This document shows positions 6,570-54,856 of a DNA stretch of 64,000 nucleotides, in pieces; positions within the stretch are counted from its first letter, which is position 1; every line of letters starts with the position of its first letter. The stretch lies in IMG/VR virus record IMGVR_UViG_3300044695_003767, one strand, 5' to 3'. The notes under the pieces are model-generated. The model had not been told where the DNA came from. It worked only from the letters and a program-made list of their open reading frames with translations, and made no database searches. The stretch is from a virus. Position numbers and translations under genes: made by a program.

Positions 6570-6595
6570 AAGGAGTTCTCTGAACTCCTTTTTTT
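6570..6595 (+). terminator. terminator after psbD
   Basis: aaggagttc-tct-gaactcctt followed by a T-run. Confidence 0.85.
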
Positions 6596-7087: not shown

Positions 7088-7290
7088 ATCACCGTAAGAG
7101 AAAACAGGTAGAGAATCAAAAAAAGAAAAGGATGTACACACCTGATGGATACGTTGGAGATCCCCCAGATGCTAAATGTCCACACTGCGGGGAATCTGGA
7201 AAGTCTTGTTCTTATGTAAATAGTTTAAGTCGTGCTTGGGCAAGGAGTGCTTGTGAGAAGAACATAATAAATAATCACAAGTCGCAGTAA
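7084..7290 (+). CDS. small Cys-rich hypothetical protein
   Basis: CPHCG...C...C; ATGA overlap. Confidence 0.65.
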   Translation: MNHRKRKQVENQKKKRMYTPDGYVGDPPDAKCPHCGESGKSCSYVNSLSRAWARSACEKNIINNHKSQ

Positions 7291-7293
7291 CTT

Positions 7294-7665: not shown

Positions 7666-7670
7666 GGTTT

Positions 7671-7678
7671 TATAAATA
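7671..7678 (+). promoter_or_regulatory. T4-type late promoter
   Basis: TATAAATA at the start of the structural region; related (A/C)TAAATA boxes at 19379, 27416, 29585, 36780, 44116, 45202, 48028, 55794 and 62812. Confidence 0.8.
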
Positions 7679-7727
7679 AATCAAAGGCAGTAAATACTGT
7701 TTTTGTGGTATATACCGAATGCGATAA

Positions 7728-9581: not shown

Positions 9582-9585
9582 AAGA

Positions 9586-9927
9586 ATGGCATTACCATTA
9601 AATGTATTTAAAACAGTTACAAAAGTTGCAACAACAAATCCAGTAGGAATTTATACGGCACCGGTTGGATATACAGGGGTTGTTCTTTTAGCACAGGCAG
9701 CAAATGTTGGTGGTGGAACTCAAACAGTTTCTTTTTCACATCAAAGAACAACTGCTGGAATTGCAGTTACTACAGAAATATTAAAGAGTTTTCCAATTTC
9801 TTCAAGTGATACTGCAAATCTTCTTGTAGGAAAACTTGTTCTTGAATCTGGTGATGTTCTTGTTTTGTCCGCAAGTAATGGAACTGATGTTAAATTTCTT
9901 GGCAGCATCTTAGAAACACTTAACTAA
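9586..9927 (+). CDS. small virion protein (beta-sandwich adaptor-like)
   Basis: 113 aa, IYTAP...GKLVLESGD...SILETLN; lies between fibre genes. Confidence 0.65.
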   Translation: MALPLNVFKTVTKVATTNPVGIYTAPVGYTGVVLLAQAANVGGGTQTVSFSHQRTTAGIAVTTEILKSFPISSSDTANLLVGKLVLESGDVLVLSASNGTDVKFLGSILETLN

Positions 9928-9942
9928 TAAAGTATCAATCAA

Positions 9943-12900
9943 ATGGCAAAGTACACCAGTGGTAGACAGAAGAATCTAAAAGTTGGTATCGTATCATATA
10001 GTGAAAATCTTACTTCACTTGAGGTAGTTGGTAAGGTTGGTATTGGTACAACTAATGCTGGTGGGGGAAGTTTATATGTTGTTGGTGATAGTTATATAAC
10101 TGGAATTTTAACTGCAAATAGAATTTTTAGTAATGTTTATGGTGAGGCAATTGGTGGTAATACTATTGTAGGTACTTCATTAAGTATTTCTGGTATAAGC
10201 ACTCTTGGAGTCACTAGTGCTACTAACCTAACAGCACAACAACTTAATGTTTCTGGTATTAGTACTTTAGGTGTTACTAGTGCTACTAACCTAACAGCAC
10301 AACAACTTAATGTTTCTGGTATTACAACGACCAACAACCTGAATGTAACTGGTGTTGGAACCTTCTTATCTGGAAATTTAAATATAAGAAACCCAGCAAA
10401 TACTTTTGGTTATACGATTGCTGGTGGTGCAATTACTGCTGATAGAATTCTTACATTACCAGTCGTCACATCAAATACTGGTATTGCAGTAACTGGTTTA
10501 AACCAAACATTCACTGGAACTCAAACATTTTCGGGTCTTACTGTAACTGGTACATTTAACCATACTGGAGGAACTGGAACTCTTGCTAATAATGGGGCCG
10601 CAGCAGCAACAGCAAATATTGCTACTGGAGCACTTGCATCTGGAATATCAAAAACAATCAACTTTGGTACTGGTGGTGCTTCTGGTTCCTTTACTCAAAT
10701 CAATATTGGACCAATTTCTGGTGTTGGTACTGTTTTAGTTAATACTGGAACCAATTTGGGTATTGGTTCTGCAACACCAACATCAAAACTTGATGTAGTT
10801 GGTGATGCAAGAGTTTCTGGTATCGTTACAGCAACTACTTTTGTTGGTGCTCTAACTGGAATAGCAGCATCTGCAACTCAACTTGTAACACCAAGAACTT
10901 TTGAAATCACTGGTGACGTTGTTGCTTCCGCCATTAGTTTTGATGGAACTGGTAGTGTATCATTAGCAGCTACCATTCAACCTAATAGTGTTGGTTTAGG
11001 AACTGATACTACTGGAGATTATGTTCAGACAGTTTCCGGAACCTCTAATCAAATCACCGTAACTGGTGGAACAGGTGAAAGTTCAACACCAACATTAAGT
11101 CTTCCCACAAACTTAATTGCTCCTGAAGATTTAACGGTTACAAGAGATCTTCAAGTTAATCGTAATTTAAATGTAAATGGAAATATTACGATTGGTGGAT
11201 CAACAGCGTTTGTCAATGTTCAAGAATTAGTTGTTACTGACCCTGATATTATTCTTGGATATAGAACTGATGCATTTGGTAATGATGTTTCTAACGATAA
11301 TACTGCGAATCATGGTGGTGTTGCTCTTGCTTCAACAGAAGGAAATCCATTAGTTAATCTTGTTGTTGCTGGTATTGAAACAGCACCTGCCACATATAAG
11401 AAAATTATGTGGTTTAAGGAAGGCACCTTTGCCGGACTTGGTACTGATGCTTGGTTAATTAACTATGCGGTTGGCATTGGATCAACACAGTTCCCTAATG
11501 GAACAAGACTTGCTGCTGGTAATGTTCAATTTACTCAAAATGATTTAGCAGTTGTAAGAAACATTAATGCGAGTGGTGTTGGTACTATTGCAAGACTGAA
11601 TAGTACCAATGCCACTTTAACAAATATTAATTCAACTGGTGTCTCAACACTTGGAATTACTACATTCACAGGTGCCGTAAGTTTTGGAACTTCTGCTTAC
11701 TTTGGTGATGGTAATAGATTATATTTTGGAAACACTCCATCTTTGGATATTTATCATTCATCTGGTGAATCTTACATTAGGGATATTGGTGCTGGTAATT
11801 TAAGATTAGAAACTAATGGTGCTGCAGTTGTTATTGCGACCACTTCAGGTGAATCTATGGGTTCGTTCATAAGGAATGGATCAGTAGAACTCTATTACGA
11901 CAATGTAAAAGAATTTGAAACCACTGGATATGGTGCAACGGTCTTTGGTATTCTTCAATCACAAGGACTTCAAGTTTCTGGTGTTTCAACATTAGGTATT
12001 ACAACTACTACTAATCTAACAACCCAAAACATTAATAACTCTGGTGTTACAACTACCAACTCTTTGAACATTGGTGCTACACAAGTCATTAGTTCTTCAA
12101 GAGAACTTCAAAATATTATTTCACTTGATGCCACAACAACATCGACAATTGAAGCAGCAATTGCTAATGGACCTAATACTTTTACTGATTTAAGTGTTAC
12201 TGGTGTTTCAACACTTGGAGTTACCAGTGCTACTAATTTAACAGCACAAACTTTAAATGTTTCTGGTGTTTCTACACTTGGAATAACTACATTTACTGAT
12301 TCTGTAAATTTTGGTTCTAATGCATTTTTTGGTGATAATGATAATTTAAATTTTGGTGATGGTAATGATTTACAAATTTACCACAATGGGGATAATAGTT
12401 ATATTGATGATGTTGGAACAGGTAATTTATACATAAGATCTAATCAAACTGAAATACAAAAATATACTGGAGAAACAATAGCCCAATTCATAGCAGATGG
12501 TGCAGTAGGACTTTATTATGATAATGTAAAAGAATTTGAAACTACTGGGTATGGTGCTACTGTTTATGGAGTTTTACAATCTCAGGGACTTCAAGTTTCT
12601 GGTATCTCAACACTTGGAGTTACATCAACCACTAACTTAATAACACAACAACTGAATGTATCTGGTGTTGGAACCTTCCAATCTTCTGGATTAAAGATAG
12701 TTGGACAATCAACTTCTTTCCAATATTCCATTGTTGGTTCTGCGATTGCTGCAAACAGAAACCTTACATTACCTTTAATTACTAGTGATGATACTGTTGC
12801 GGTTCTTGGTACATCTCAATCATTTACTGCAGCACAAACATTCTCTGCAGGAATAACTGCCACTTCTACTCTTACATTAAGTGGTTCAACTACAGGAACT

Positions 12901-15759: not shown

Positions 15760-15760
15760 A

Positions 15761-16123
15761 ATGGCAGCACCAAATCTTAAAAATCCAAATACAATCACCG
15801 GTATTACTTCAAGTGTAAGTATTAATACTGCATCAATTACTGGTATTCTCACTAATACTGCGAATAGTAATAAAGTCTTCAAAATTAATACTATTTTTGC
15901 CGCAAATGTAGGGACGACAACTGCTACTAATGTAAGTATCAGTGTTTTGAGAGGTGGAACTGATGTGTATCTTGCAAAATCAATATCAGTCCCTGTCGGA
16001 ACAACTCAAATAATATCAACGAAAGAGACATATTTTTATCTTGAAGAAAACGTTGGAATTAGGGGGCAGGCATCTTCTGCTAATACCATTGATGTGACAA
16101 TTTCTTATGAGGAGATTTCATAA
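15761..16123 (+). CDS. small virion protein (adaptor-like)
   Basis: MAAPNL...KINTIFAANV...ISVP...YLEEN...SYEEIS; coupled to the fibre and propeller genes. Confidence 0.65.
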   Translation: MAAPNLKNPNTITGITSSVSINTASITGILTNTANSNKVFKINTIFAANVGTTTATNVSISVLRGGTDVYLAKSISVPVGTTQIISTKETYFYLEENVGIRGQASSANTIDVTISYEEIS

Positions 16124-19100
16124 TGGTTAGAAAACTGATAGGAAATGCTAATCAAATATCAGGTATCTATGAACTTGATGATAGTGCTTCTTTATCCAAT
16201 AAATTAGATAATTTAAGTAGGTATGTTTATGATAACAAATCAACTCCTCTTATTCCGGGAAACATAGGTAATATTACTGATTTATACATTTCACCAGACG
16301 AAACAAAACTTTATGTAATAGATTCATCTGCTGATACAATTTATCAAAATTCTCTTTCTGATGGTTATATATTTTCAGATTATAATAATCTAAAATCATT
16401 TTTGTTGTCTGGTCAAGACGGATCACCACAAGGGGTCTATATTGGTGCTGCTGGAACGGCAATGTATATCGTTGGAAACACAAATGATACAATCTATCAG
16501 TACACCTTAAGTACTGCATATGATGTTTCTACGATATCTTATTCGGGCATATCATCACTTATATCGGCAAGAGAAACGAATCCAACAGATATAACTTTTA
16601 GTGATGATGGCACTAAGGTTTATGTTGTAGGTCAAACTGCTGCTGGCGCTGGATTGATTTCTTTGGGAGAATATGTTCATCAATTTAACTTAACCACTGC
16701 CTGGAATGTTGGTACTGCTGGATACTCTACAAGTTTTTATGTAAATCCCCAAACTTCTACAGCACCAAATGGTCTTACTATTGGTGCTGGTGGTACTGCA
16801 ATGTACGTGAATAACTCCACCACTGTGTACCAATATACCTTAGGAACTGCTTGGCAAGTCAATACTGCTTCTTATACGAATAAGTCTCTTCTTGTAAGTG
16901 GTCAAGACACAACCCAGTCATCAATTTATTTTAAAGATGATGGTACTAAGCTTTATACTGTAGGTGCAATTAATGACAACGTATATGAATATTCTCTAGG
17001 TATTCCGTGGGACATTAGTACCGCATCTTATGATACTGAGTTCTTTTATGTCGGTGCTCAGGATGCAACATCAACAGGACTTTATATTGCCCCCGATGGA
17101 AAAAACGTTTATGTTACGGGATCTACTAGCAGTAGAGTTAATCAATATCCTTTGAGAACTGCGTGGGATCTTAAAACGGTTGATGTTACACCATCTCTTT
17201 TTATAGGATTTTTGGAAGGTACTGCACAATCACTTTATTTCAAACCTGATGGCACTTCAGTTTATATTTTAGGATCCGTTGGAGATAGAATTTATCAAAT
17301 TCCATTAAATACTCCTTGGGACCTTAGAACTTCTGGAATATCATCTATAAGTGCCTATCCTGTTGCTGCTCAAGACATAACATCAGTAGGAGTTTACATT
17401 GGTGCTGCTGGAACTGCTATGTATATCGTTGGATCCACAAGTGACACGATTTATCAATATACCTTAGGAACTGCATATGATGTTTCTACAGCATCTTATT
17501 CTGGTATATCATCTGTTATATCTGCAAGAGAAACGGATCCAACAGATATAACTTTTAGTGATGATGGCACTAAGGTTTATGTTGTGGGTCAAACTGGTGT
17601 TGGTTTACCCGTTGCTTCAGGAGAATATGTTCACCAATTTAACTTAAGCACTGCCTGGAATGTTGGTACTGCAGGTTACTCAACAAGTTTTAATGTCAGT
17701 CAAGAATCAGCACCAACAGGAGTTTATATTGGTGCTGCGGGCACAGCAATGTATGTAGTTGGAACCGCAAATGATACAGTATATCAATACACATTGGGGA
17801 CTGCCTGGCAAGTCAATACTGCTTCTTATACAAATGTAAGTTTTTCTATAAATACTCAAGATGCTGGCCCACAATCAATTTATTTTAAAGATGATGGGAC
17901 CAAGATGTATATGTTGGGATCTACCAATGATGCCATACATCAATATTCTCTAAGCACTGCTTGGAATGTTAGCACTGCATCTTATGAGAATAAGAGTCTT
18001 TATGTTGGAGCACACGAAGGAACATCAAATGGACTTTATTTCAGTCCTGATGGTACAAGTATTTATATAGTTGGATCTGGCAATGATAGGGTTGTTAGAT
18101 ATCCACTTTCTACTGCTTGGGATATTTCTACTTGGGTTCAATCGTTTTATGTTGGAACTCAAGAAACAGTACCAAATGCAATTTACTTTAAACCTGATGG
18201 AACTATAGTTTATATATTGGGAACTTCTCAAGATACAATTTTTCAATATTCTTTAACCACACCTTGGGATCTTACTACAGCATCTTATACTAACAAGAGT
18301 TTTTCTATCACACTTTTTGAGGTAACACCAACAGGTCTTCATTTTAGCAGTGATGGAACTAGAGTTTATGTTGTGGGTAATACTAATGATAGAGTTCATT
18401 TATTTAAATTAGCAACTGCGTGGGATATTAGTACTGCATTTAATCCTTACAATATTAAGAGTTTTTCTGTTAATTCTCAAGACACTTCACCACAAGGGGT
18501 CTATATTGGTGCTGATGGCACGGCAATGTACATAATGGGAGATACTAATAATACAATCTATCAGTACACCTTAGGTACTGCATATGATGTTTCTACAGCA
18601 TCTTATTCGGGAATATCTTCTAATATAACCACAAGAGAAACTGTTCCACAAGATCTAACTTTTAGTGATGATGGCACTAAGGTTTATGTTGTAGGTCAAG
18701 CTGCTGCTGGCGCTGGACTAATTGCGGGTGCCGAATATGTTCATCAATTTAATTTAACCACTGCCTGGAATGTTGGTACTGCTGGATACTCTACAAGTTT
18801 TTATGTGACTACTCAAACTAGTTCAACACCAGCTGGTCTTACTATTGGTGCTGGTGGTACTGCAATGTATGTCAATAATAGCTCTAACGTTTATCAATAT
18901 ACCTTAGGAACTGCTTGGGAAGTCAATACTTCTTCTTATACAAGTAAGACTTTTGTTATAAGTACTCAAGATGCTGGCCCACAATCAATTTATTTTAAAG
19001 ATAATGGAACCAAGATGTATATGTTGGGATCTATCAATGATGCTATATATCAATATTCTCTAAGTACTCCGTGGGACATTAGTACCACATCTTCTGATAC

Positions 19101-34253: not shown

Positions 34254-34907
34254 ATGAGTATTCTTATATCATTACCTTGTTATGGTGGATTAGTGAATGA
34301 AAAAACCACAACATCACTGTTTAATCTTGGTAAACTTTTAGTTCGCAATAATATAGATCACGGCATAATGACTGTCGCAAATGAGTCTTTGATTACTCAC
34401 GGACGGTCAAGAATTGCTAATTTCTTTATGAATAATACTGAGTTTGAGTATCTGTTCTGTCTGGATGCTGATGTTGCCTTTTCGCCAGAAGATATGTTGA
34501 AGTTATATTCGTATCAAAAACCAATCGTGTCTGCATCATATCCTATGAAGACACTACCAATACGACACTGTTATGAACTTTATAATCCTGTAAAGTTATG
34601 TGGAAATCTTGTGAAGATTGGTGGAATTGGTATGGGATTTGTATTAATTCATAGAAGTGTCTTTGAGAAACTAAATAATCATTATAGTGAATTAAAGTAT
34701 TTTCCGGGATTGAATAATTCAAACTATCCAATTACTGAAAAAGAATATCATAATTCATATCACTACTTTGCAGAAATGAATAAGGAAGGAAAATACTTGG
34801 GAGAAGATATGAGTTTCTTTCATCGTGTCAGTGATATTGGTTATGATGTTTGGTTGGATACAAGTATAGAATTACAGCACATCGGTTCTCACGTATTCGG
34901 TAAGTAA
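34254..34907 (+). CDS. GT-A fold glycosyltransferase
   Basis: ESLITHGRS, LFCLDADV (DxD), GMGFVLIHRSVF, GEDMSFF, HIG. Confidence 0.75.
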   Translation: MSILISLPCYGGLVNEKTTTSLFNLGKLLVRNNIDHGIMTVANESLITHGRSRIANFFMNNTEFEYLFCLDADVAFSPEDMLKLYSYQKPIVSASYPMKTLPIRHCYELYNPVKLCGNLVKIGGIGMGFVLIHRSVFEKLNNHYSELKYFPGLNNSNYPITEKEYHNSYHYFAEMNKEGKYLGEDMSFFHRVSDIGYDVWLDTSIELQHIGSHVFGK

Positions 34908-34908
34908 A

Positions 34909-36783
34909 ATGGCAATTGGAGTATTTGGTCTACAAGTTGCTTACAGATTAAAGAGACTTGAGGTGATGAGTGTTGATGATACTCACGGATGGTTTGGTGG
35001 TGGTTTTCCAGCACTATTAACAGTAGACCGTATAGATTTTTCTAATGATACTGGAACTACAAACATTAGAGGTTCATTAAGTGTAGGAAGAAGTGCTGCG
35101 GGAGCAACAGGAAACTCTAACTATGGTTGGTTTGGTGGTGGTAATTCTCCAGGAGTATTATCATCAGTAGATAGAGTAGATTTTTCCAATGATTCTCCAG
35201 CAGTATCAGTAAGAGGTCCATTAAGTTTAGCAAGAGATGGAGTATCAGCAACAGGAAACTCTAACTATGGTTGGTTTGGTGGTGGATTTGGTGTAAGTAG
35301 TAGATCAATTGTAGACCGTATAGATTTCTCTAATGATTCTTCCACGGCATCACCAAGAGGTCCATTAAGTTCATCAAGATATAGTGGAGCGTCAACAGGA
35401 AACTCTAACTATGGTTGGATTTCTGGTGGGCAAAATCCAACACTATTTTCAACAGTAGACCGTATAGATTTTGCAAATGATTCTTCAACGGCATCACCAA
35501 GAAGTCCATTGAGTTCAGCAAGAAGTTCTTTATCAGCAACAGGAAACTCTAATTATGGTTGGTTTGGCGGTGGTACTACTCCAGGACCAGTAGTAGCAAC
35601 AGTAGACCGTATAGATTTCTCAAATGATTCTGTATCAGTATCAGTAAGGGGTTCATTATTTACGGCAAGATATGGTTTAGCAGCAACAGGAAACTCTAAC
35701 TATGGTTGGTTCGGTGGTGGTTCTATTAGTGGACCAGGAGTATCAACAGTAGACCGTATAGATTTCTCTAATGATTCAGTATCAGCATCACCAAGAGGAC
35801 CATTAAGTTTAGCAAGACAAGGTTTAGCATCAACATCGGGACAAGCAAAAGGACCAGCAATCAAACTGCAAAAAGCAGGGAATTATGGTTGGTTTGGTGG
35901 TGGTGGACCATCACTTGCGGGGGGTGCAACTGCAACAGTAGATCGTATAGATTTTTCTAATGATTTGGCAACAGCATCACCAAGAGGTTCATTAAGTAAA
36001 ACAAAATCTCAAATATCAGCAACAGGAAATTCTAACTATGGTTGGTTTGGTAGTGGTATTACTACACCACCAACACCAGCAACAGTATCAACAGTAGACC
36101 GTATAGATTTTTCTAATGATTTGGCAACAGCATCAGTTAGAGGTATATTAAGTTCAACAAGATATGCTTTAGCAGCAACAGGAAACTCTAACTATGGTTG
36201 GTTTGGTGGTGGTGGTCTTAATCCGCCAATAACATCAATAGTGGACCGTATCAATTTTTCAAATGATTTAGAAACAGCATCACCTAGAGGTTCATTAACT
36301 CAAACAAGATTTAGATTAGCAGCAACAGGAAATTCTAACTATGGTTGGTTTGGTGGTGGTAGAGGTGGTTCTCCAATATCAACAGTAGCAACAGTAGACC
36401 GTATAGATTTTTCCAATGATTCTGCAACAGCATCACCAAGAGGTCCATTAAGTGCTGCAAGATATTCTTTAGCAGCAACAGGAAACTCTAACTATGGTTG
36501 GTTTGGTGGTGGTGCTTTTCCAGCAAAAGCAACAGTGGACCGTATAGATTTCTCTAATGATTCCACAACGACATCAGTTAGAGGTCCATTAAGTTCGGCA
36601 AGATATCATTTATCGGCAACAGGAAACTCTAATTATGGTTGGTTTGGTGCAGGTCTTTCACCAGCACAAGTATCAACAGCAGATCGTATAAACTTTTCAA
36701 ATGATTCTGTGTCAGCATCAATTAGAGGATTACTTGGGACAAAAACCTTCTTCTATGGAGCAACCTCCAACAGCACCAAATAA
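34909..36783 (+). CDS. kelch-like double beta-propeller protein A (12 repeats)
   Basis: 12 x R..LAATGNSNYGWFGGG-[variable]-TVDRIDFSND; linker after repeat 6. Confidence 0.8.
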   Translation: MAIGVFGLQVAYRLKRLEVMSVDDTHGWFGGGFPALLTVDRIDFSNDTGTTNIRGSLSVGRSAAGATGNSNYGWFGGGNSPGVLSSVDRVDFSNDSPAVSVRGPLSLARDGVSATGNSNYGWFGGGFGVSSRSIVDRIDFSNDSSTASPRGPLSSSRYSGASTGNSNYGWISGGQNPTLFSTVDRIDFANDSSTASPRSPLSSARSSLSATGNSNYGWFGGGTTPGPVVATVDRIDFSNDSVSVSVRGSLFTARYGLAATGNSNYGWFGGGSISGPGVSTVDRIDFSNDSVSASPRGPLSLARQGLASTSGQAKGPAIKLQKAGNYGWFGGGGPSLAGGATATVDRIDFSNDLATASPRGSLSKTKSQISATGNSNYGWFGSGITTPPTPATVSTVDRIDFSNDLATASVRGILSSTRYALAATGNSNYGWFGGGGLNPPITSIVDRINFSNDLETASPRGSLTQTRFRLAATGNSNYGWFGGGRGGSPISTVATVDRIDFSNDSATASPRGPLSAARYSLAATGNSNYGWFGGGAFPAKATVDRIDFSNDSTTTSVRGPLSSARYHLSATGNSNYGWFGAGLSPAQVSTADRINFSNDSVSASIRGLLGTKTFFYGATSNSTK

Positions 36784-36807
36784 ATAACTCAAACTACATC
36801 ATTTCTT

Positions 36808-37419
36808 ATGAAGCAGAATATTATTATTGTTGATAATTTCTATGAGAATCCATATGAAGTTCGTCAATACGCATTAAATCTGGAGTATCCACAACCACAA
36901 GACGGATATACCTATCCAGGTAGAAACTCAAAAGGAACTTTTTATAATCAAGAGATTCACGATAAGTTTGAGAATTTAATTGGAAGACATTTAGTTCCTG
37001 CTGATTGTGGTAATCATGGAGATTTTAGATTATCATTAGAAGCAGATACATTCCAACAAGACATTCATATTGACCCAATCTGGGAATGGGGTTGTGTTCT
37101 TTACATGAATCTACCGCATCAGTGTATTGATGAGGCAGGAACATCATTCTGGAAACATAAGAAACTGGGGTGGGAAAGAGTTCCAGAACAACAAGAAGCA
37201 GGTTGGTTTGGTTATACTTCTTATGATGAAATCCGTGATGGTATTGTGTATGGTGATGGACTTGACCGTTCTAAGTGGGAGAGATACTGTTTGGCAAATA
37301 TGAAGTATAATAGAGCAGTCATCTTTGACCCAAAACTCTGGCACTCACACGGAGCAAACTTTGGAGATAGTTTAGAAAATGGTAGATTAGTTCAATTGTT
37401 CTTCTTTAATAATGCATAA
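36808..37419 (+). CDS. 2OG-Fe(II) oxygenase-like protein (DUF6445-like)
   Basis: IIVDNFYENP, YPGR, HID...GTSFW...YNRAVIF...WHS...RLVQLFF. Confidence 0.75.
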   Translation: MKQNIIIVDNFYENPYEVRQYALNLEYPQPQDGYTYPGRNSKGTFYNQEIHDKFENLIGRHLVPADCGNHGDFRLSLEADTFQQDIHIDPIWEWGCVLYMNLPHQCIDEAGTSFWKHKKLGWERVPEQQEAGWFGYTSYDEIRDGIVYGDGLDRSKWERYCLANMKYNRAVIFDPKLWHSHGANFGDSLENGRLVQLFFFNNA

Positions 37420-38242
37420 GACTTATTTTTTTGAGAGTGGATTGCCACGTTCTGGTTCTACATTACTTTCTGCAATTCTAAATCAAAATCCAGATATTCA
37501 CTGCGGTGCAATTTCTCCTGTGCTGGAGATTATGTATTATACAGAGCAATACTTTGAAGGGTCGGAGCAGGCACTTGCATATCCAAAACCAGAGCAACAT
37601 CATAAGATTATTTCAAGTGTGATTGATAATTATTATGATGATATTGATAAACCAATCGTAGTGGATAAATGCCGTGCCTGGACTAATAACACCGATAGAA
37701 TACAAGAATACATTACAAAGACTCCAAAGATTCTGTGCCCTGTGAGAGATGTTGTAGAGATTCTTGCATCGTTTATTCAAATGATTCATCGCAATTCCAA
37801 TCAAGTATCTTTTGTAGATAAGGCACTCACAGAACAAGGATATGAACTGACTGATGATAATCGGTGCGACCATCTAATGTCTCCCGTAGGTATTGTAGAC
37901 CAGTCCTTATATGCCTTTGGAGAGGGGTTCAGAAAGGGTTGTGAGAGGTATATGCATATGATTGAGTATAATGACTTGGTAAATTGTCCAGAAGAAACGA
38001 TGCACAAGGTTTATAAGTTCTTAGAGATTCCCGAATACAAACACGACTTTGGTAATGTCAGTCATAAATACCGTGAGAGAGATAATGATATTTACGGACT
38101 AAGTGATATGCACGAAGTTCGTAAGCAAGTAAAAAGAACTTCTAAAAGACCTGAAGAAGTTTTAAGTGATTATGTATTGAATAAGTATTCTGGTATGGAA
38201 TTTTGGAGAAAGGCAAAACCACCAATTAGTTTGTTCATATAA
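37412..38242 (+). CDS. PAPS-dependent sulfotransferase
   Basis: SGLPRSGSTLL 5'-PSB loop; PVRD...S 3'-PB motif; YNDLV..P. Confidence 0.88.
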   Translation: MHKTYFFESGLPRSGSTLLSAILNQNPDIHCGAISPVLEIMYYTEQYFEGSEQALAYPKPEQHHKIISSVIDNYYDDIDKPIVVDKCRAWTNNTDRIQEYITKTPKILCPVRDVVEILASFIQMIHRNSNQVSFVDKALTEQGYELTDDNRCDHLMSPVGIVDQSLYAFGEGFRKGCERYMHMIEYNDLVNCPEETMHKVYKFLEIPEYKHDFGNVSHKYRERDNDIYGLSDMHEVRKQVKRTSKRPEEVLSDYVLNKYSGMEFWRKAKPPISLFI

Positions 38243-38246
38243 GTAA

Positions 38247-40130
38247 ATGACAATCAATAATAACAATATATTTGGAGCATTTACACTTGGAGAAGTTCGT
38301 AGTGGACGACTGACTGGTGAATGGTTAAATAAAGAATCCGTTGCGAATTATGGTTGGTTTGGTGGTGGTTATAATAGTATTGCAACAGTAGATCGTATAG
38401 ATTTCTCCAATGATTCTTCCACGGCATCACCAAGAGGTTCATTAAGTTCGGGAAGACATGGTTTAGCAGCAACAGGAAACTCTAACTACGGTTGGTTTGG
38501 TGGTGGTGTTATTCCTGCAAGATCACTTTCTACAGTAGATCGTATAGACTTTTCTAATGATTCTCCAACTGCATCAATTAGAGGTTCATTAAGTTCAGCA
38601 AGATATTACTTAGCAGCAACAGGAAACTCTAACTATGGTTGGTTTGGTGGTGGTTTCCCTGGTCCAAGATCAATAGTAGACCGTATAGATTTCTCTAATG
38701 ATGCAGCAACAGCATCACCTAGAGGATCATTAAGTTTAGCAAGATATAATTTAGCAGCAACAGGAAACTCCAATTATGGTTGGTTTGGTGGTGGAAATCC
38801 AGGGTTTACATCAACAGTAGACCGTATAGATCTTTCTAATGATTCTGGAACAGCATCACCAAGAGGTCCATTAAGTTCGGCAAGATATAGTTTAGCAGCA
38901 ACAGGAAACTCTAACTATGGTTGGTTCGGTGGTGGTGGACCTAGTTCTACACCAGGACCATTATCAAGAGTAGATCGTATTGATTTCTCTAATGATTCTT
39001 CAACAGCATCAGTAAGAGGTCCATTAACTTTAGAAAGAACTCGATTGGCGGCAACAGGAAACTCTAATTATGGTTGGTTTGGTGGTGGTTATAATACAGT
39101 TACTAGGAGTACAGTAGACCGTATAGATTTTTCTAATGATTCTGTATCAGCATCATTAAGGGGTTCATTAAATCCTGCAGGAAAAACAACACACACAGCA
39201 ACCTCAGGAGTTCTCAATATTCGCAGACAAAAAGCAGGGAATTATGGTTGGTTTGGTGGTGGTTTTCCATCAGCAGACAGAGTAGACCGTATAGATTTTT
39301 CTAATGATTCCGCAACAGCATCAGTTAGAGGTCCATTAAGTTCAGCAAGATATAGATTAGCAGCAACAGGAAACTCTAACTACGGTTGGTTTGGTGGTGG
39401 TAGAGCAGGATCTCCAATAGCAAATACATCAAGAGTAGACCGTATTAATTTCGCAAATGATTCTCCATCAGCATCAGTAAGAGGACCATTAAGTTTAGCA
39501 AGATCTAGTATGGGTGCAACAGGAAATTCTAACTATGGTTGGTTCGGTGGTGGTGGTACTCCATCAGTAGTAGCAACGGTACATCGCATAGATTTCTCAA
39601 ATGATTCTTCAACCGCATCAACAAAAGGTCCATTAAGTTCCGGAAGATATACTCCAGGAGCAACAGGAAACTCTAACTACGGTTGGTTTGGTGGTGGATT
39701 TGTTTCATCTCCGACACCATCTTATGTAACAACAGTAGACCGTATAGATTTCTCTAATGATTCTTCAACCGCATCACCAAGAGGTCCATTAAGTTCAGCA
39801 AGATATGGTTTAGCAGCAACAGGAAACTCTAACTATGGTTGGTTTGGTGGTGGTTATGCTCCTACAACAGTTAGATCAACAGTAGACCGTATAGATTTCT
39901 CCAATGATTCCTCAACAACATCAGTAAGAGGTCCATTAAGTTCAGCAAGATATAGATTAGCAGCAACAGGAAACTCTAACTACGGTTGGTTTGGTGGTGG
40001 TGATCCTGGACCATTATCAACAGTAGACCGTATCAATTTTGCAAATGATTCTGCAACAGCATCACCAAGAGGTTCATTATTTACAACAAAATATTCTTCA
40101 GCAGCAACCTCCAACACCCCAATAGGATAA
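38247..40130 (+). CDS. kelch-like double beta-propeller protein B (12 repeats)
   Basis: Same repeat as protein A, arranged 2x6 with an IRRQKAGN linker. Confidence 0.8.
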   Translation: MTINNNNIFGAFTLGEVRSGRLTGEWLNKESVANYGWFGGGYNSIATVDRIDFSNDSSTASPRGSLSSGRHGLAATGNSNYGWFGGGVIPARSLSTVDRIDFSNDSPTASIRGSLSSARYYLAATGNSNYGWFGGGFPGPRSIVDRIDFSNDAATASPRGSLSLARYNLAATGNSNYGWFGGGNPGFTSTVDRIDLSNDSGTASPRGPLSSARYSLAATGNSNYGWFGGGGPSSTPGPLSRVDRIDFSNDSSTASVRGPLTLERTRLAATGNSNYGWFGGGYNTVTRSTVDRIDFSNDSVSASLRGSLNPAGKTTHTATSGVLNIRRQKAGNYGWFGGGFPSADRVDRIDFSNDSATASVRGPLSSARYRLAATGNSNYGWFGGGRAGSPIANTSRVDRINFANDSPSASVRGPLSLARSSMGATGNSNYGWFGGGGTPSVVATVHRIDFSNDSSTASTKGPLSSGRYTPGATGNSNYGWFGGGFVSSPTPSYVTTVDRIDFSNDSSTASPRGPLSSARYGLAATGNSNYGWFGGGYAPTTVRSTVDRIDFSNDSSTTSVRGPLSSARYRLAATGNSNYGWFGGGDPGPLSTVDRINFANDSATASPRGSLFTTKYSSAATSNTPIG

Positions 40131-40133
40131 AAT

Positions 40134-41867
40134 ATGAAATCAGGAGCAAGTGAAAGTTCTTATTTTTTTCTTGAAGAATATTATAAGTTTCCAGAAAACA
40201 TTATAGTTTCTCATTTACCACAAGAACTTCAACAATCAAATAAACCAATCAAAGTATTATGGTCGCAACATTCTTACGACCAACCAGTTTATCTTAACTT
40301 TGATTTTTCAATTTGTGATTTAATTGTCTCTCCATCCAACTGGTGTAGAGAACAATTCATTAAGTATCATCATATCCCAGAGAATAAAATTGTCACAATT
40401 CCAACAGGAGTATCAAAGCAATTTACATACTCATCAAGAAAATCAAAGACATTTATCTATACTTCCATACCATATAAAGGTCTTGAGGTATTAGCACAAA
40501 TCATTCCTCATATTCCAGAGGCAACATTCAAGATTTTCTCTGCGATGAATCTTTATGATATTCAAGAAGACCCATACACAGAACTTTATGAATATCTTAA
40601 ATCACTTCCAAATGTCGTCTACTCACCAGCAGTAGACCAAGCAGAACTCATAGAGCACTTACAGGATGCTGCATTCTTTATTCATCCAAATATTTGGGAG
40701 GAAACATTCTGTGTTTCATTAGCAGAAGCAATGTCTTGTGGATGCTTTCCAATTCTTACAGATATTGGAGCACTTCCAGAAGTATCAAATGAGATTGCAA
40801 ATATTGTTCCTATGGAAGGTATAAGAACCACCAAAGGATATGAAGTCACAGACAACTTCCTAAATAACTTTATAGATGCCTGTAAATCTGCAGTATATTT
40901 CTTTGATAATGACAGGCAGTACTACGACCAAATTTCACAATCTGTTTCACATTATGCTACTGAAACTTATGATTGGAAAAAAATTGCAAACGTTTGGAAA
41001 CAAACATTAGAACCATTTAGTAAACAAACTATGACTGAAAATTGTAACCAACTGCAAATTATTTCCCCAGAGGAAGCAGTAAGTAACGAAGAGTATTTAC
41101 AACAGGCATTTCAAGAAGTGCTTCGTTGGGAAGAAGCAGACAAAGAACTGGCACAAGGAAGAACTAATTTTCAGATTGAGAAGTTCTTTCTGTTAGAGCA
41201 ATATACAGTTCCTGCAGCATTTCAGGCAGCAATTAAGAATCGTCGTATTCTTGCCGAAGGTTATATGCAGAAACTGATTGAGATGAAAGAAAAGGTTCGT
41301 GAGTTTGAGTATCGTTGGAAAGGTAAGAATACTGATGAACCCGTAGAGTGGCATACTTCTGGACCGAATGGTGGTTCCACAAAACTCTATTGGTATGATT
41401 TGGATTCAATCTCAACTCAAAACTATTTGAAGTCTTGTGAGTTGGAAATTCGTGACCGCATTCAGCAGATGAATTTCTTTGATAAGATTATTAATCGTCT
41501 GATTGAACTAAATGGTGGTAAGACAGTTACTAGAGAACAGTTTGAAGCAGAAGATCACGTTTATTGGGAACGTCGTTTTGCAGAGCAATCTCTGGATGAA
41601 ATGGTAAGTTCCAAGACTGGTATTAGTATTGGTAATCTCCACTCAATGAGAAGAGGAACTGCACCTACTCTTGTAAGTGATGATACAAATAGAATCAAGA
41701 ATGGTTATGGTTCACTTGCCGATGCAATTAATGACCCTGATAGATTCTTGAATACTCTGCAAGAGAAAGTTCTTCGTGGTATTGAAGAAGTGACGAATAC
41801 TGATTTAGGTTTGCTTGCACCTGGAACAGAACAACATCAACAACTTTTAGAATCCAGAAACTCATAA
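40134..41867 (+). CDS. GT4 (GT-B) glycosyltransferase fused to a helical/coiled-coil domain
   Basis: YTSIPYKGL, EETFCVSLAEAMSCG (EX7E); ~280-aa charged helical C-terminal domain. Confidence 0.8.
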   Translation: MKSGASESSYFFLEEYYKFPENIIVSHLPQELQQSNKPIKVLWSQHSYDQPVYLNFDFSICDLIVSPSNWCREQFIKYHHIPENKIVTIPTGVSKQFTYSSRKSKTFIYTSIPYKGLEVLAQIIPHIPEATFKIFSAMNLYDIQEDPYTELYEYLKSLPNVVYSPAVDQAELIEHLQDAAFFIHPNIWEETFCVSLAEAMSCGCFPILTDIGALPEVSNEIANIVPMEGIRTTKGYEVTDNFLNNFIDACKSAVYFFDNDRQYYDQISQSVSHYATETYDWKKIANVWKQTLEPFSKQTMTENCNQLQIISPEEAVSNEEYLQQAFQEVLRWEEADKELAQGRTNFQIEKFFLLEQYTVPAAFQAAIKNRRILAEGYMQKLIEMKEKVREFEYRWKGKNTDEPVEWHTSGPNGGSTKLYWYDLDSISTQNYLKSCELEIRDRIQQMNFFDKIINRLIELNGGKTVTREQFEAEDHVYWERRFAEQSLDEMVSSKTGISIGNLHSMRRGTAPTLVSDDTNRIKNGYGSLADAINDPDRFLNTLQEKVLRGIEEVTNTDLGLLAPGTEQHQQLLESRNS

Positions 41868-41878
41868 GGAGAAAGTAG

Positions 41879-44119
41879 ATGCCAGCAGGAGACGTATTTG
41901 GTCTTGATGGATTTTTTCTAAACGTATCAAATCCCATTACGGTTTCTGCTGTAGATATTAACTCTACTGCTGCTGGTGCCGGTATTACTGTAACTGCTGG
42001 TTCTTTTAGTTCTGGAACAGTCACTCTTACACTTTCAACTGCTGCTGGTCTTTCTACAACACCTTTTTATACTGGTGCAAAGATAGCAGTTTCTGGTCTC
42101 GCAATCGCATCAGGAGTAGCACATACTGGATATAATGGAAATTTTGTAGTCACAGGATTTGCAGGAACCACAACAGTTTCTTATGCGACTACTGGTTATG
42201 TTGGTCCTGTGACTGCTGGTATTACCACAACTGGTTTGGTAATGTTAGTGACTGATACTGCAGTTACGAATACCACTTGGAGTAGTTCTCAAACTCACGG
42301 TTGGTTCGGTGGTGGACAATCTCCATCAACAGGATTTTCAACAGTAGACCGCATAGATTTCTCCAATGATACTGGAACTGCAAATATTAGAGGTTCATTA
42401 AGTTCAGCAAGAAATGAGTTAGCAGCAACAGGAAACTCTAACTATGGTTGGTTTGGTGGTGGATATGTTCCAGTAGCATATTCAACAGTAGACCGTATAG
42501 ATTTCTCTAATGATTCTTCAACGGCATCACCTAGAGGTCCATTGAGTCGTACTAGATATCGTTTAGCAGCAACAAGTAACAGTTCTTATGGTTGGTTTGG
42601 TGGTGGTGAATTCTCACCATTTGTATTATCAACAGTAGACCGTATAGATTTCTCTAATGATTCTGGAACAGCATCAGTCAGAGGTCCATTAAGTTTTGCT
42701 GCGAATATATTAGCAGCAACAGGAAACTCTAACTATGGTTGGTTTGGTGGTGGTAATACTCCAGGAGTATTATCATCAGTAGGTCGTATAGATTATGCTA
42801 ATGATGCAGCAACAGCATCACCTAGAGGTCCATTAAGTTCAGCAAGAAGAGATTTAGCAGCAACAAGTAACAGTTCTTATGGTTGGTTTGGTGGTGGTTT
42901 TCCTGGTCCAGGAGTATTATCAAGAGTAGACCGTATAGATTTTTCTAATGATTCTTCAACGGCATCAGTAAGAGGTTCATTAAGTTCAGCAAGAAATCTT
43001 TTAGCAGCAACAGGAAACTCTAATTATGGTTGGTTTGGTGGTGGTACTGGTGGTTCTGGTGCAATATCAAGAGTAGACCGCATAGATTTTTCTAATGATT
43101 CCACAACAACATCACCAAGAGGTCCATTAAGTTCATCAAGATATCGTTTAGCAGCAACATCAGGGCAGGCAAGGTCTTCAAGTATTCGTCTACAAAAAGC
43201 AGGGAATTATGGTTGGTTTGGTGGTGGAAGTTCTGGGGGAGCACCATTTACTGGATACTCAACAGTAGATCGTATAGATTTCTCAAATGATTCCTCAACA
43301 GCATCACCAAGAGGTTCATTGATTGCAACAAAATATATAAAAGCAGCAACAGGAAACTCTAACTATGGTTGGTTTGGTGGACAATTCATCACTCCTACAC
43401 CAGGAAGAGCATCAACAGTAGACCGTATAAATTTCTCCAATGATTCTGCAACACCACTAATTAGAGGTTCATTGAGTTCAGCAAAAAATAATGTAGCAGC
43501 AACAGGAAATTATAATTATGGGTGGTTTGGTGGTGGATATCCGGGATCTGTTGGAACAGCAGCAGTAGACCGTATAAATTTTTCTAATGATGAATTAACA
43601 GCATCATCAAGAGGACCATTGAGTTCAGCAAAATATAATTCTGCAGCAACAGGAAATTATAATTATGGGTGGTTTTCTGGTGGAACTATTCAACCATCAC
43701 CTGCACTTCCACCGGTTAATTTATCATCAACAGACCGTATAGATTTCTCTAATGATTCTGCAACAGCATCACCAAGAGGTCTATTAAGTTTAGCAAGAGG
43801 AGGTTTAGCAGCAACAGGAAACTCTAACTATGGTTGGTTTGGTGGTGGTAGTGGACCAATATCAACAGTAGACCGTATAGATTTTTCAAATGATTCTGCA
43901 ACAGCAACTGTTAGAGGTCCATTAAATGGAGTAAGATCTCTTCTAGCAGCAACAGGAAACTCTAACTATGGATGGTTTGGTGGTGGTATTTCTCCTGGAG
44001 GAACATCAACAGTGCATCGATTAGATTTCTCTAACGATTCTGTATCAGCATCACCAAGGGGTCTATTAAGTCAGGCAAGATCATTATTAGCAGCAACAGC
44101 CAATACACCAATAGGATAA
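41879..44119 (+). CDS. kelch-like double beta-propeller protein C (12 repeats plus N-terminal beta domain)
   Basis: ~140-aa N-terminal domain, then 2x6 repeats with an IRLQKAGN linker. Confidence 0.8.
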   Translation: MPAGDVFGLDGFFLNVSNPITVSAVDINSTAAGAGITVTAGSFSSGTVTLTLSTAAGLSTTPFYTGAKIAVSGLAIASGVAHTGYNGNFVVTGFAGTTTVSYATTGYVGPVTAGITTTGLVMLVTDTAVTNTTWSSSQTHGWFGGGQSPSTGFSTVDRIDFSNDTGTANIRGSLSSARNELAATGNSNYGWFGGGYVPVAYSTVDRIDFSNDSSTASPRGPLSRTRYRLAATSNSSYGWFGGGEFSPFVLSTVDRIDFSNDSGTASVRGPLSFAANILAATGNSNYGWFGGGNTPGVLSSVGRIDYANDAATASPRGPLSSARRDLAATSNSSYGWFGGGFPGPGVLSRVDRIDFSNDSSTASVRGSLSSARNLLAATGNSNYGWFGGGTGGSGAISRVDRIDFSNDSTTTSPRGPLSSSRYRLAATSGQARSSSIRLQKAGNYGWFGGGSSGGAPFTGYSTVDRIDFSNDSSTASPRGSLIATKYIKAATGNSNYGWFGGQFITPTPGRASTVDRINFSNDSATPLIRGSLSSAKNNVAATGNYNYGWFGGGYPGSVGTAAVDRINFSNDELTASSRGPLSSAKYNSAATGNYNYGWFSGGTIQPSPALPPVNLSSTDRIDFSNDSATASPRGLLSLARGGLAATGNSNYGWFGGGSGPISTVDRIDFSNDSATATVRGPLNGVRSLLAATGNSNYGWFGGGISPGGTSTVHRLDFSNDSVSASPRGLLSQARSLLAATANTPIG

Positions 44120-44143
44120 ATACCTCAAACTACATTATAAGCA

Positions 44144-44794
44144 ATGAATTTATTATCCAAAGTTTTGATTGCACCAAAAGTCATCAATCAGGAAGGTATT
44201 GATGCACTGGTAAATCATATGAAAACTTCAAAAACAGAAGACCTTTCAGTATTTGATCCAGACAAATCCAATCAGACACGAGGAACTGAATGGATTACAG
44301 ATAAGAAAACAAGAGATACTCAAATTGCTCCAATTGAACCTGTATTTCCACAGGTTAACGAATTGATGCATCATATTGTAAAGCAAGTTATCAATCCTTT
44401 TTATCAGTTTGAAGTTGATAGTTCAGAAGTTCCACAACTACTCTGCTATGGTGTAGGAGGACACTACCAACCTCATATTGATGGTGAAGGTATATGGACT
44501 GCACCAGATCAGACACAACTTTGGAGAAAGACAGTAGATCGTGATTTGTCTATGGTCTTATATTTGAATGATGGATTTGAAGGTGGAGATTTTGTATTTC
44601 CAGACCTTCATATTCATATTCGTCCTGAACCTGGACTTCTTGTATGTTTTCCTTCTAATAGGTATTATCGTCACGGTGTTGAACCAGTCACCAAAGGAAA
44701 CCGATATTCAATGGTAACTTGGATGACAGTCAAAGGATTTGAGAGTATGGAGACACAATGCAATAATCTCAAATCTAAATATGGGGTGTGTTGA
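44144..44794 (+). CDS. 2OG-Fe(II) oxygenase, prolyl-4-hydroxylase-like
   Basis: HYQPHID, RDLSMVLYLN..FEGG, FPS...HGVEPVTKGNRYS. Confidence 0.88.
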   Translation: MNLLSKVLIAPKVINQEGIDALVNHMKTSKTEDLSVFDPDKSNQTRGTEWITDKKTRDTQIAPIEPVFPQVNELMHHIVKQVINPFYQFEVDSSEVPQLLCYGVGGHYQPHIDGEGIWTAPDQTQLWRKTVDRDLSMVLYLNDGFEGGDFVFPDLHIHIRPEPGLLVCFPSNRYYRHGVEPVTKGNRYSMVTWMTVKGFESMETQCNNLKSKYGVC

Positions 44795-44819
44795 CAAAAA
44801 CTTTTAATTACCCTATAAT
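44791..44819 (+). promoter_or_regulatory. consensus sigma70 promoter
   Basis: TTGACA, 17 bp, TATAAT (44814-44819). Confidence 0.88.
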
Positions 44820-44824
44820 ATCCA

Positions 44825-44922
44825 AGTCTTCAACATCCTTGTAACTTTGGGAATGAAGACCCTCTCTGTGGTGGGAGAGGTGAGTTGGTGGTTACTAAGG
44901 AGGGTTTATATCCTCCTTTTTT
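44825..44922 (+). ncRNA. candidate structured sRNA or attenuator leader
   Basis: Stems gtcttca/tgaagac and cctctct/gggagagg, then terminator aaggagg/cctcctt plus T-run, directly after a consensus promoter. Confidence 0.55.
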
Positions 44923-44957
44923 TCTATTATAAATTATAATAAAAATAGATAACAATT

Positions 44958-45200
44958 ATGAATTTCACAGTATACTCAAAAGAAGATTGCCCATATTGCT
45001 ATAAAGTTAAACAAGTTCTTGAATTGACAGGAAGTAACTTTGTGGTTTATAATTTAGGGGAACATTTTACCAGAGATGAGTTTTATGCTGAGTTTGGTGA
45101 AGGATCTACCTTTCCACAGGTTATTTGTAATGACAAGAAATTAGGAGGATCAGTTGACACAATCAAATTCCTCAAGGAACAACAAATCATCAAATCCTGA
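44958..45200 (+). CDS. nrdC: glutaredoxin
   Basis: CPYC, TFPQV, LGG. Confidence 0.9.
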   Translation: MNFTVYSKEDCPYCYKVKQVLELTGSNFVVYNLGEHFTRDEFYAEFGEGSTFPQVICNDKKLGGSVDTIKFLKEQQIIKS

Positions 45201-54008: not shown

Positions 54009-54419
54009 CTATTTAGAAGGATTTTCCGAAAGATCTGCATATGGAAGTCTCTGTATATCCGTTAATTCTTCTTTTTGAACTTCATAAAGATCTCCGACTA
54101 TTTCTTCCCAAGTATATTGTCGAGATTCTCCCCAATGAAAATTAATTCCTGTAAATCCCCAATTAAAAACTTTGGTGACACCAACTAATGGATACATATC
54201 ATAACTTAAACCAGGTGTTTTAGCGATGTAAGTAAATGTATAAATGCTGTTTGGTTGTACCTGAACTTTTTTAATAACTGGTAAAATATTTTTAATTTCA
54301 TTCATTAAATTATCTGGTTTTTCAATACCAATTAAACTATCAACCAATTCACGGAGTTGATTAGTCTTATCATCGGTTGGATTTTGCTCTCTTCTTTCTT
54401 TAAGAGTTTTTCTTGGCAT
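54009..54419 (-). CDS. gp2-like DNA end protector
   Basis: YTF.Y.AKTP...YD.YPLV...GFTGINFHW; adjacent to gp4. Confidence 0.6.
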   Translation of the reverse strand: MPRKTLKERREQNPTDDKTNQLRELVDSLIGIEKPDNLMNEIKNILPVIKKVQVQPNSIYTFTYIAKTPGLSYDMYPLVGVTKVFNWGFTGINFHWGESRQYTWEEIVGDLYEVQKEELTDIQRLPYADLSENPSK

Positions 54420-54856
54420 TACTTAATACCTAATTCGTTTTCTGTTAGGATTTTAAATTCATAACCACGATCAAGACACCATTCTTTTGCTGCTTTCCAT
54501 TTTGCCTGATTTTTAGCATATTCAACCACTTCGTAGATGTAACCCTTAGTTTTTCTTTTTGGAACTTTTGGCTCTATTGTTTGTCTTTGTGGTTTGATCT
54601 CAATAATATATTTTTTAACTTGACCAGTAGATTCCTTTACTTTGATATAAAAGTCTGGAAAATATCTGTGAATGCGATTATCTACTGGTGAACGGTAGGG
54701 TAATGCTAATTCTTCACTTCCCCATTCAATGATATTTTCATTGAGATCACAATAGACCATAAACTTTCTTTCCCACAATGATCTATAAATGATGTTTGTT
54801 GGGTCACCTTTGTATTTTTTAGGATAAGAAGGTTGGAATCTTCCTTTATATGACAT
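54419..54856 (-). CDS. 4: head completion nuclease gp4
   Basis: KYKGDP..IIYRSLWE, HRYFPDF, EIKP, NQAKWKAA. Confidence 0.93.
   Translation of the reverse strand: MSYKGRFQPSYPKKYKGDPTNIIYRSLWERKFMVYCDLNENIIEWGSEELALPYRSPVDNRIHRYFPDFYIKVKESTGQVKKYIIEIKPQRQTIEPKVPKRKTKGYIYEVVEYAKNQAKWKAAKEWCLDRGYEFKILTENELGIK

Follow-up and report, generated by a model that had tools for sequence, protein, structure and literature searches.

Hydroxylation of proline followed by O-glycosylation of the resulting hydroxyproline is a well-established route of protein decoration, as in the Skp1 protein of Dictyostelium (modified by P4H1 and Gnt1) and in the plant extensins, and a virus can supply the first enzyme itself, PBCV-1 encoding a prolyl 4-hydroxylase (P4H). 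Mycobacteriophage-encoded glycosyltransferases have reportedly been shown by experiment to glycosylate the capsid and tail-tube proteins of their own phages, in work that Freeman et al. are said to have published in Cell Host Microbe in 2023. In bacteria, operons combining dioxygenases and sulfotransferases were proposed to hydroxylate and then sulfate co-encoded tail-collar or collagen-like proteins (Iyer, Abhiman, de Souza and Aravind, 2010; PMC2938197), while for the dioxygenase arrays of cyanophages the same study proposed a role in secondary metabolism, not in virion modification. Further, CBB_552, a Kelch propeller protein of the jumbo phage vB_PcaM_CBB, was found in the virion by mass spectrometry (PMC5259590). 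Here we describe a cassette at positions 34254-44794 of a 64,000-nucleotide stretch of viral DNA (IMG/VR record IMGVR_UViG_3300044695_003767; this whole stretch is called the window below), in which three hypervariable proteins, predicted to be Kelch propellers, are interleaved with five putative hydroxylating, glycosylating and sulfating enzymes. A functional link between the propellers and these tailoring enzymes is well supported by comparative genomics.

The cassette resembles each of these systems in part. With the operons of Iyer et al. it shares the presence in one cluster of dioxygenases, a sulfotransferase and a non-enzymatic, putatively structural protein, and one of its dioxygenases belongs to the Syn9 gp52-like family, which those authors classed as classical 2-oxoglutarate (2OG)/Fe(II) dioxygenases (PMC2938197). 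However, the partner in those operons is a tail-collar or collagen-like protein and a synthetase for 3'-phosphoadenosine-5'-phosphosulfate (PAPS) is often co-encoded, whereas the cassette described here pairs its enzymes with a hypervariable Kelch propeller in a probable phage late operon, adds two glycosyltransferases and contains no PAPS synthetase. The likeness to the reported mycobacteriophage system lies in phage glycosyltransferases that are encoded beside structural genes and would decorate the phage's own virion proteins in the host cytoplasm; the difference is that glycosylation alone is involved there, while here, on a reading from the genes, putative propeller acceptors are combined with hydroxylases and a sulfotransferase. 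The likeness to the Skp1 and extensin systems, namely a P4H-family enzyme alongside glycosyltransferases and a Pro/Ser/Thr-rich putative acceptor, is a functional analogy only, the glycosyltransferases of the cassette (a GT4 enzyme and an unclassified GT-A-like enzyme nearest to STIV A197) lying outside the hydroxyproline-glycosylating families. CBB_552 likewise is a six-bladed Kelch propeller, but its description mentions neither hypervariability nor tandem duplication nor an association with modifying enzymes. We found no description of this propeller-enzyme cassette in the cyanophage literature; a proteomics paper on post-translational modifications in marine phages does not extend to cyanophages, hydroxylation or sulfation.

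The cassette consists of eight plus-strand genes with operon-like spacing, the intergenic distances ranging from an 8-nt overlap to 24 nt. In order, they encode a GT-A-like glycosyltransferase (P0001; 34254-34907; 217 aa), propeller A (34909-36783; 624 aa), a DUF6445 (Syn9 gp52-like) 2OG/Fe(II) dioxygenase (P0003; 36808-37419; 203 aa), a sulfotransferase resembling the protein-tyrosine sulfotransferases (TPST) (P0004; 37412-38242; 276 aa), propeller B (38247-40130; 627 aa), a GT4 (GT-B) glycosyltransferase with a conserved helical C-terminal domain (P0006; 40134-41867; 577 aa), propeller C (P0007; 41879-44119; 746 aa) and a prolyl-hydroxylase-like 2OG/Fe(II) oxygenase (P0008; 44144-44794; 216 aa). 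Gene calls, translations and family scans bear out the order, strand and coordinates given in the original prediction, an earlier reading of this DNA by a model that saw only the letters and the open reading frames (ORFs). The same is true of its placement of these genes at the end of the late tail-fibre region: by PHROG matches the cassette closes a long block of tail-fibre, baseplate and other virion structural genes (7728-34250) that directly precedes it.

Each of the three repeat proteins has 12 units of 46-61 aa (~48 aa), arranged as 6+6 with a longer linker after unit 6. The units follow the pattern ...ATGNSNYGWFGGG-loop-STVDRIDFSNDSxTASxRGxLSxAR..., with YGWFGGG recurring in them and SNDSSTASPRGPLS as the constant peptide of the propellers. 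An AlphaFold2 model of propeller B, built with 20 homologues, is all-beta with four strands per unit and of moderate confidence (predicted local distance difference test, pLDDT, 69; predicted template modelling score, pTM, 0.47). In Foldseek comparisons each half of it matches the six-bladed Kelch domains of Keap1, KLHL3 and KLHL12 (target-normalised TM-score 0.83-0.89, root-mean-square deviation 2.4-3.5 A, E ~1e-15), every match spanning half of the model. Propeller A, in which repeat dissection reveals a short conserved N-terminus followed by 12 Kelch-like blades, can be aligned with the modelled propeller B and matches phrog_19111 (E 4e-137). Propeller C has a 139-aa T/G/A/V-rich domain ahead of its 12 Kelch-like blades and passes the Kelch_4 cut-off (23.2 bits vs 21.6); for P0002 the Kelch_3 score falls under the cut-off of that family. 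Judged by the model, then, the repeat proteins are tandem six-bladed Kelch propellers, two in each, in agreement with the propeller fold originally assigned to them. Mapping of the Kelch motif identifies the variable loop as the one between strands B and C (B-C), which in Kelch and WD40 propellers shares the ligand-binding face with the D-A loop.

Two other assignments for these proteins were rejected. The Pfam family FAM183 (PF14886) scores E 1e-13 on the repeat proteins, but no single stretch passes; the family rises above its cut-off only by summing many weak repeat matches, and the annotation is therefore likely false. This label is precomputed on most members of the repeat family in a large protein collection. 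Homology of the N-terminal domain of propeller C to the fibre proteins of the window was also not accepted, the BLAST matches being weak and driven by composition.

Comparison with close relatives revealed that enzymes and propellers evolve differently: the enzymes are 82-99% identical to those of the window, as against 55-72% for the propellers. Within the orthologues of propeller B the variation is concentrated in the loops, whose residues are 18-30% identical compared to 67-77% for the framework. Of the approximately 490 loops gathered from relatives, 426 are unique in sequence, and the hypervariability claimed for the propellers is thereby confirmed. In the large protein collection the repeat family forms more than 1,000 clusters at 90% identity, of which the named ones are all called 'hypothetical protein'; among the 120 clusters listed, the size is 1-7 members and mostly one. 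The ends of the proteins behave otherwise, in that the short N-termini of propellers A and B and the 139-aa N-terminal domain of C are better conserved than the propeller bodies. For the first 26 aa of propeller A the identity in relatives is 69-100%, as opposed to 55-72% for the whole protein, and for the N-terminal domain of propeller C it is 69-90%, as opposed to 59-71%. Fibres and adhesins are typically built in this way, anchored by a conserved proximal part and binding through a variable distal one. This adhesin-like pattern of conserved enzymes, diverse propellers and conserved N-termini, as read from the alignments, supports the view of the cassette as a module of adhesins with their tailoring enzymes. 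No family match to a reverse transcriptase of a diversity-generating retroelement was seen among the window ORFs scanned, though no dedicated search for one was made.

The variable loops consist of S to 18%, T to 17% and P to 14%, as compared to 4.8% P in the whole proteins. Our recount of the loops following GGG gives Pro in 32 of 36, the very number originally reported. The further statement that this Pro usually lies beside Ser or Thr holds in a weaker form: [ST]P or P[ST] occurs in 19 loops, which is just over half. Pro persists in 86% of the unique loops despite their turnover, the first Pro being mostly at position 2-4. Moreover, the dipeptide Pro-Gly is over-represented, with 123 occurrences in the unique loops against 43.7 +/- 5.9 expected from within-loop shuffles (z = 13.5), and 13 against 4.5 expected in the loops of the window alone. 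X-Pro-Gly is the site of collagen-type P4H and also a common beta-turn, and hence this excess is suggestive only. An equally good candidate acceptor is the constant C-D loop with the motif SNDSxTAS[PV]RG[PS]LS, which is repeated 36 times and has Ser/Thr throughout, with Pro in 17 blades at one position and in 19 at another.

The catalytic motifs are intact in the sequences of all five enzymes. None of them has a membrane-spanning segment, and their expected location is accordingly the cytoplasm, the site of virion protein synthesis. P0008 scores well above the cut-off of PF13640 (2OG-FeII_Oxy_3; 63.8 bits vs 27, E 3e-17), and its H111-x-D113, H177 and R187 are invariant in nine homologues. Its top matches in PDB are prolyl 3-hydroxylase 1, the Bacillus anthracis P4H and collagen P4H alpha-2 (E ~2e-7), the next after these being hydroxylases of the PiuC/YbiX type (E ~5e-6); by this similarity it is prolyl-hydroxylase-like and may act on peptidyl proline. 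The second dioxygenase, P0003, matches PF20043 (50.6 bits vs a cut-off of 24, E 3e-13), is 27% identical to Syn9 gp52 and has H87-x-D89, H179 and R193 invariant, Syn9 gp52 included; no solved relative of it was found by sequence or profile. P0004 belongs to PF13469 (Sulfotransfer_3; 58.3 bits vs a cut-off of 27, E 1.7e-15), with the PAPS-binding motifs GLPR(S/T/A)G and R112...S120 invariant. Its best PDB matches are protein-tyrosine sulfotransferases 1 and 2 (E 4e-7 with the single sequence, 4e-11 with the family profile), and with the profile the top seven matches are all protein-tyrosine sulfotransferases (E 4e-11 to 2e-6), the polyketide sulfotransferase CurM following far behind. The nearest solved relatives of both P0008 and P0004, so far as sequence comparison can tell, act on proteins. 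A gene for PAPS synthesis was found neither in the cassette nor among the other window genes that were scanned.

Of the glycosyltransferases, P0001 has no passing family in the Pfam scan (Glycos_transf_2, E 0.18); it matches phrog_1574 and phrog_34859 ('glycosyltransferase') and, as a family profile, the GT-A glycosyltransferase A197 of STIV (E 4.3e-10), with D71-x-D73 invariant. This nearest solved relative (PDB 2c0n) is a small viral GT-A enzyme with a DxD motif, but it originates from an archaeal virus and the similarity extends over no more than ~120 residues. P0006 passes the cut-offs of both Glyco_trans_1_4 (PF13692, 43.2 bits) and Glycos_transf_1 (PF00534, 40 bits) over residues 113-218, and its E189/E190...E198 are invariant, E190-x7-E198 constituting an EX7E-like motif. 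It is extended at the C-terminus by ~280 aa (residues 295-577) that are strongly conserved, with the motifs WEExDKExAQGRxNFQxEKF and GNxHSMRR. This extension matches no Pfam family, has a weak PHROG match whose function is unassigned, and retrieved nothing from the protein atlas. AlphaFold2 models it as long helices around a hairpin, and because this helix-hairpin-helix core weakly resembles prefoldin in Foldseek, albeit without significance (E 0.09), a chaperone or substrate-holding role is possible. In the phage S-SKS1 the same domain is encoded by a gene of its own that lies among the propeller genes, and it is probably separate also on a 239-kb metagenome contig (L056), as an unannotated 324-aa gene after a 362-aa GT4 gene.

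The distribution of the repeats and the enzymes across phages is congruent. Searching 50,697 phage records with the repeats by tblastn recovered only S-SKS1, AG-345-L05 and AG-345-O18, and matches above 45% identity to each of the five enzymes are confined to these same three, though not every enzyme is present in each; the next-best matches are at most 42% identical. In IMG/VR we found 46 related loci, and of the 45 that bear propellers 43 are informative in having at least 1 kb beyond the last propeller. The hydroxylase is present in 40 of the 43. Of the three loci without it, one (L035) is a contig cut upstream and two (L043 and L044) carry a solitary propeller paralogue. The latter, at 9224-11014, lies ~20 kb from a full cassette on the same contigs, of 147 kb and 260 kb, and has no adjacent enzyme genes. 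The propeller, DUF6445, sulfotransferase, GT4 and P4H genes are kept together through at least 10 gene orders, with both order and copy number varying (L024, L025, L030, L034, L036/37, L041/42, S-SKS1, AG-345-L05, AG-345-O18, L056). The S-SKS1 cassette has its P4H homologue divided between two overlapping ORFs (6226-6887), and its propeller genes look fragmented (68-6192); either the repeats contain sequence errors, or the cassette is decaying in its only cultured carrier.

The pairing recurs with an unrelated repeat family. Three RCC1-type propellers are present in each of Marine virus AG-345-E08 (L049, MH319737.1; cassette at 3008-17024) and the freshwater phage S-SRM01 (L053; 1552-12995), where they adjoin tail fibres and are interleaved with P4H-like, 2OG-FeII_Oxy_5, DUF6445, sulfotransferase, GT25 and other glycosyltransferase genes. 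We regard this convergent analogue as the strongest argument for the linkage, since the Kelch-type cassettes share one syntenic site and may be a single inherited island. Following the AG-345-E08 cassette are nucleotide-sugar genes for a dehydratase, a cytidylyltransferase and a kinase. A scan of 185,579 prokaryote genomes yielded only two tiny contigs of metagenome-assembled genomes, probably mis-binned phage DNA, and there is thus no independent bacterial context in which to test the linkage.

Both oxygenase genes are preceded by the same 20-mer, ATAAATAnCTCAAACTACAT, at 36780-36799 (+) upstream of the DUF6445 gene and at 44116-44135 (+) upstream of the hydroxylase gene, these being the only 2 matches in the window against 0.08 expected; the motif is kept upstream of the same genes in relatives. 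Its ATAAATA core also occurs a short distance ahead of structural genes, at 7294, 7728, 19400 and 29613, and it fits NATAAATA, a relaxed form of the late promoter that has been reported in cyanomyoviruses. The window shows no enrichment of the canonical T4 late promoter, TATAAATA (6 matches vs 5.3 expected); the relaxed form is the only one found sitting before genes. Within 34254-44794 there is no strong terminator comparable to the first one 3' of the cassette, a hairpin at 44897-44918 (+) with a 9-bp stem followed by a T run. The late-promoter-like motifs speak for late expression of the cassette.

The most economical reading of these observations is that the propellers are the substrates of the co-encoded tailoring enzymes, and we would give it roughly even confidence. 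The module would then comprise late-expressed adhesins plus their own tailoring enzymes. The three propeller proteins would be virion-attached host-binding proteins, each anchored by a conserved N-terminus and built of two six-bladed Kelch propellers, presenting one hypervariable binding face formed by the B-C loops and probably also the D-A loops. The five soluble enzymes, produced together with the propellers in the infected cell, would most likely act on them prior to assembly. Side chains may be hydroxylated by the P4H-like and DUF6445 dioxygenases (our favoured guess being Pro in X-Pro-Gly, Ser-Pro and Thr-Pro), the GT-A-like and GT4 enzymes may attach sugars to hydroxyl groups, and the TPST-like enzyme may transfer sulfate from PAPS to Tyr, a hydroxyl or a sugar. 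The role of the propellers as substrates, their presence in the virion, the acceptor residues and the order of steps are what we infer here. That the cassette represents an already known kind of system, the phage-encoded modification of the phage's own structural proteins, is partly supported. The original proposal of a phage glyco-decoration system accordingly stands as regards hypervariable, fibre-placed propellers, intact soluble enzymes and their co-inheritance, a second propeller family included, while the particular series of modifications on the loops (hydroxyproline, sugar and finally sulfate) is a conjecture that we consider rather doubtful.

Several points weigh against the propellers being the substrates. 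The Kelch-type cassettes all lie at one syntenic position in related T4-like phages, and their co-occurrence is on that account largely due to the common descent of one island. Accessory genes accumulate in this very region in T4-like cyanophages; Syn9 has ten tandem dioxygenases adjoining its tail-fibre assembly genes without any propeller, a distant sulfotransferase of S-SCSM1 is located among replication genes, and in BUCT-ZZ01 an RCC1 propeller sits beside a tail fibre with no enzymes within ~8 kb. Most of the enzymes are dispensable, as the natural variants L038 and L039 do without DUF6445, the sulfotransferase and GT4, and AG-345-O18 has no glycosyltransferase in its 36.8-kb record. These two variants (75-1688 in L038, 123-2391 in L039), from two different metagenome samples, retain only GT-A, P4H and one propeller of 313 aa with six blades, which seems to have arisen by recombination between propeller genes, with loss of DUF6445, the sulfotransferase, GT4 and two propellers. 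As to the chemistry, loop Pro and Pro-Gly could simply be turn formers, and the loops are nearly devoid of Asp and Glu (D+E <1%), unlike typical TPST acceptor sites, so that tyrosine sulfation of the loops is unlikely; the conserved Tyr residues (in SNYGW and ARY) also have no acidic neighbours. In addition, a 2025 cyanophage paper, in which a virion proteome includes a 2OG oxygenase and a TolB-annotated protein, takes phage glycosyltransferases to act on the host cell wall or on DNA (PMC12801897).

Some of these points would be accounted for if the enzymes shared no more than an address with the propellers and instead remodelled host surface glycans or lipopolysaccharide, or made a small sulfated or hydroxylated metabolite. 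The fibre region would then be a hyperplastic accessory site, and a change of the host surface would serve superinfection exclusion or escape from grazers. Many cyanomyovirus glycosyltransferases and 2OG oxygenases occur without propellers, as in Syn9 and S-SCSM1, such glycosyltransferases are usually read in the field as host cell-wall modifiers (PMC12801897), and secondary-metabolite roles were proposed for cyanophage dioxygenase arrays by Iyer et al. (PMC2938197); the loss of three enzymes in L038 and L039 and the nucleotide-sugar epimerase/dehydratase encoded elsewhere in the window (196-1089) are in line with this too. However, mere proximity fits poorly with the one-by-one alternation of the genes at gaps of -8 to 24 nt, the recurrence of the pairing with the unrelated RCC1 propeller family, the confinement of close homologues of each enzyme to repeat-bearing phages, the absence of membrane segments from all of the enzymes, and nearest solved relatives that act on proteins. 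We see this explanation as a real but minor possibility, well short of the reading in which the propellers are modified. Alternatively, the enzymes may act on virion proteins but elsewhere than on the variable loops, either on the opposite-face C-D motif SNDSxTAS[PV]RG[PS]LS or on the 1005-aa and 538-aa fibre proteins encoded upstream, for the sake of stability or protease resistance rather than of binding chemistry. Conserved enzymes need a constant recognition element, which the C-D motif with its 36 occurrences offers, and the targets reported for mycobacteriophages (Freeman, 2023) are capsid and tail-tube proteins. The retention of Pro in 86% of the loops too, with Pro-Gly at z = 13.5, speaks against this alternative, which we deem unlikely.

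Less probable still, and in our view improbable, is that the propellers are no virion parts but intracellular binding modules that recruit variable host proteins, such as defence factors, to inactivating enzymes. Kelch domains are classically substrate adaptors, and the best structural matches here are indeed Keap1 and KLHL proteins; a hypervariable binding face would suit an arms race with host proteins, and the enzymes resemble protein modifiers. Against this, the genes close the tail-fibre block, the N-terminal domain of propeller C is fibre-like in composition, and conserved N-termini with variable distal parts follow the usual fibre layout. Late-promoter-like motifs likewise suit structural genes better than early anti-defence genes, and a Kelch protein is proven in a phage virion in the case of CBB_552.

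Modification of the propellers by the enzymes encoded beside them would bear on a wider question, in that few unexplained genes are as common in marine and freshwater cyanomyoviruses as those for 2OG/Fe(II) oxygenases, which are usually listed as auxiliary metabolic genes. If it is true, part of this supposed metabolic gene pool would be virion-maturation machinery, sulfation and hydroxylation would be added to the very few virion modifications known in phages, and the host range of abundant cyanophages might rest on chemistry that is invisible in gene sequence alone. Should the specific chain on the loops hold as well, host recognition would combine an antibody-like loop library with enzymatic decoration, and the long-unexplained 2OG oxygenases and sulfotransferases of cyanophages would gain their first function. 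The question is directly testable, since a version of the cassette is present in S-SKS1, a phage that grows on Synechococcus WH7803.

The window belongs to a T4-like cyanomyovirus, with psbA (3812-4894) and psbD (5484-6560) both upstream of the cassette and thyX, phoH, an exonuclease gene and gp32 located 3' of it. A structural gene upstream of the cassette has 68-76% DNA identity to S-RSM4, S-PM2, Syn1 and others. Megablast of the cassette against the 50,697 phage records gave zero matches, and thus this collection holds no close sequenced relative of the phage. The epimerase/dehydratase at 196-1089, ~33 kb upstream of the cassette, is NAD-dependent and GDP-mannose 4,6-dehydratase-like (E 6e-59), and could be a source of sugar donors for the cassette glycosyltransferases. 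A candidate small RNA directly follows the cassette (44791-44923), where ~95 nt without an ORF lie between a perfect TTGACA-17-TATAAT promoter (44791-44819) and the terminator at 44897-44918; a second perfect promoter is found at 45024-45053. Elsewhere in the window, an endonuclease VII gene (4994-5437) lies between psbA and psbD, and a minus-strand gene at 54419-54856, inside the baseplate region, encodes a protein with a TnsA-like endonuclease N-terminal domain.

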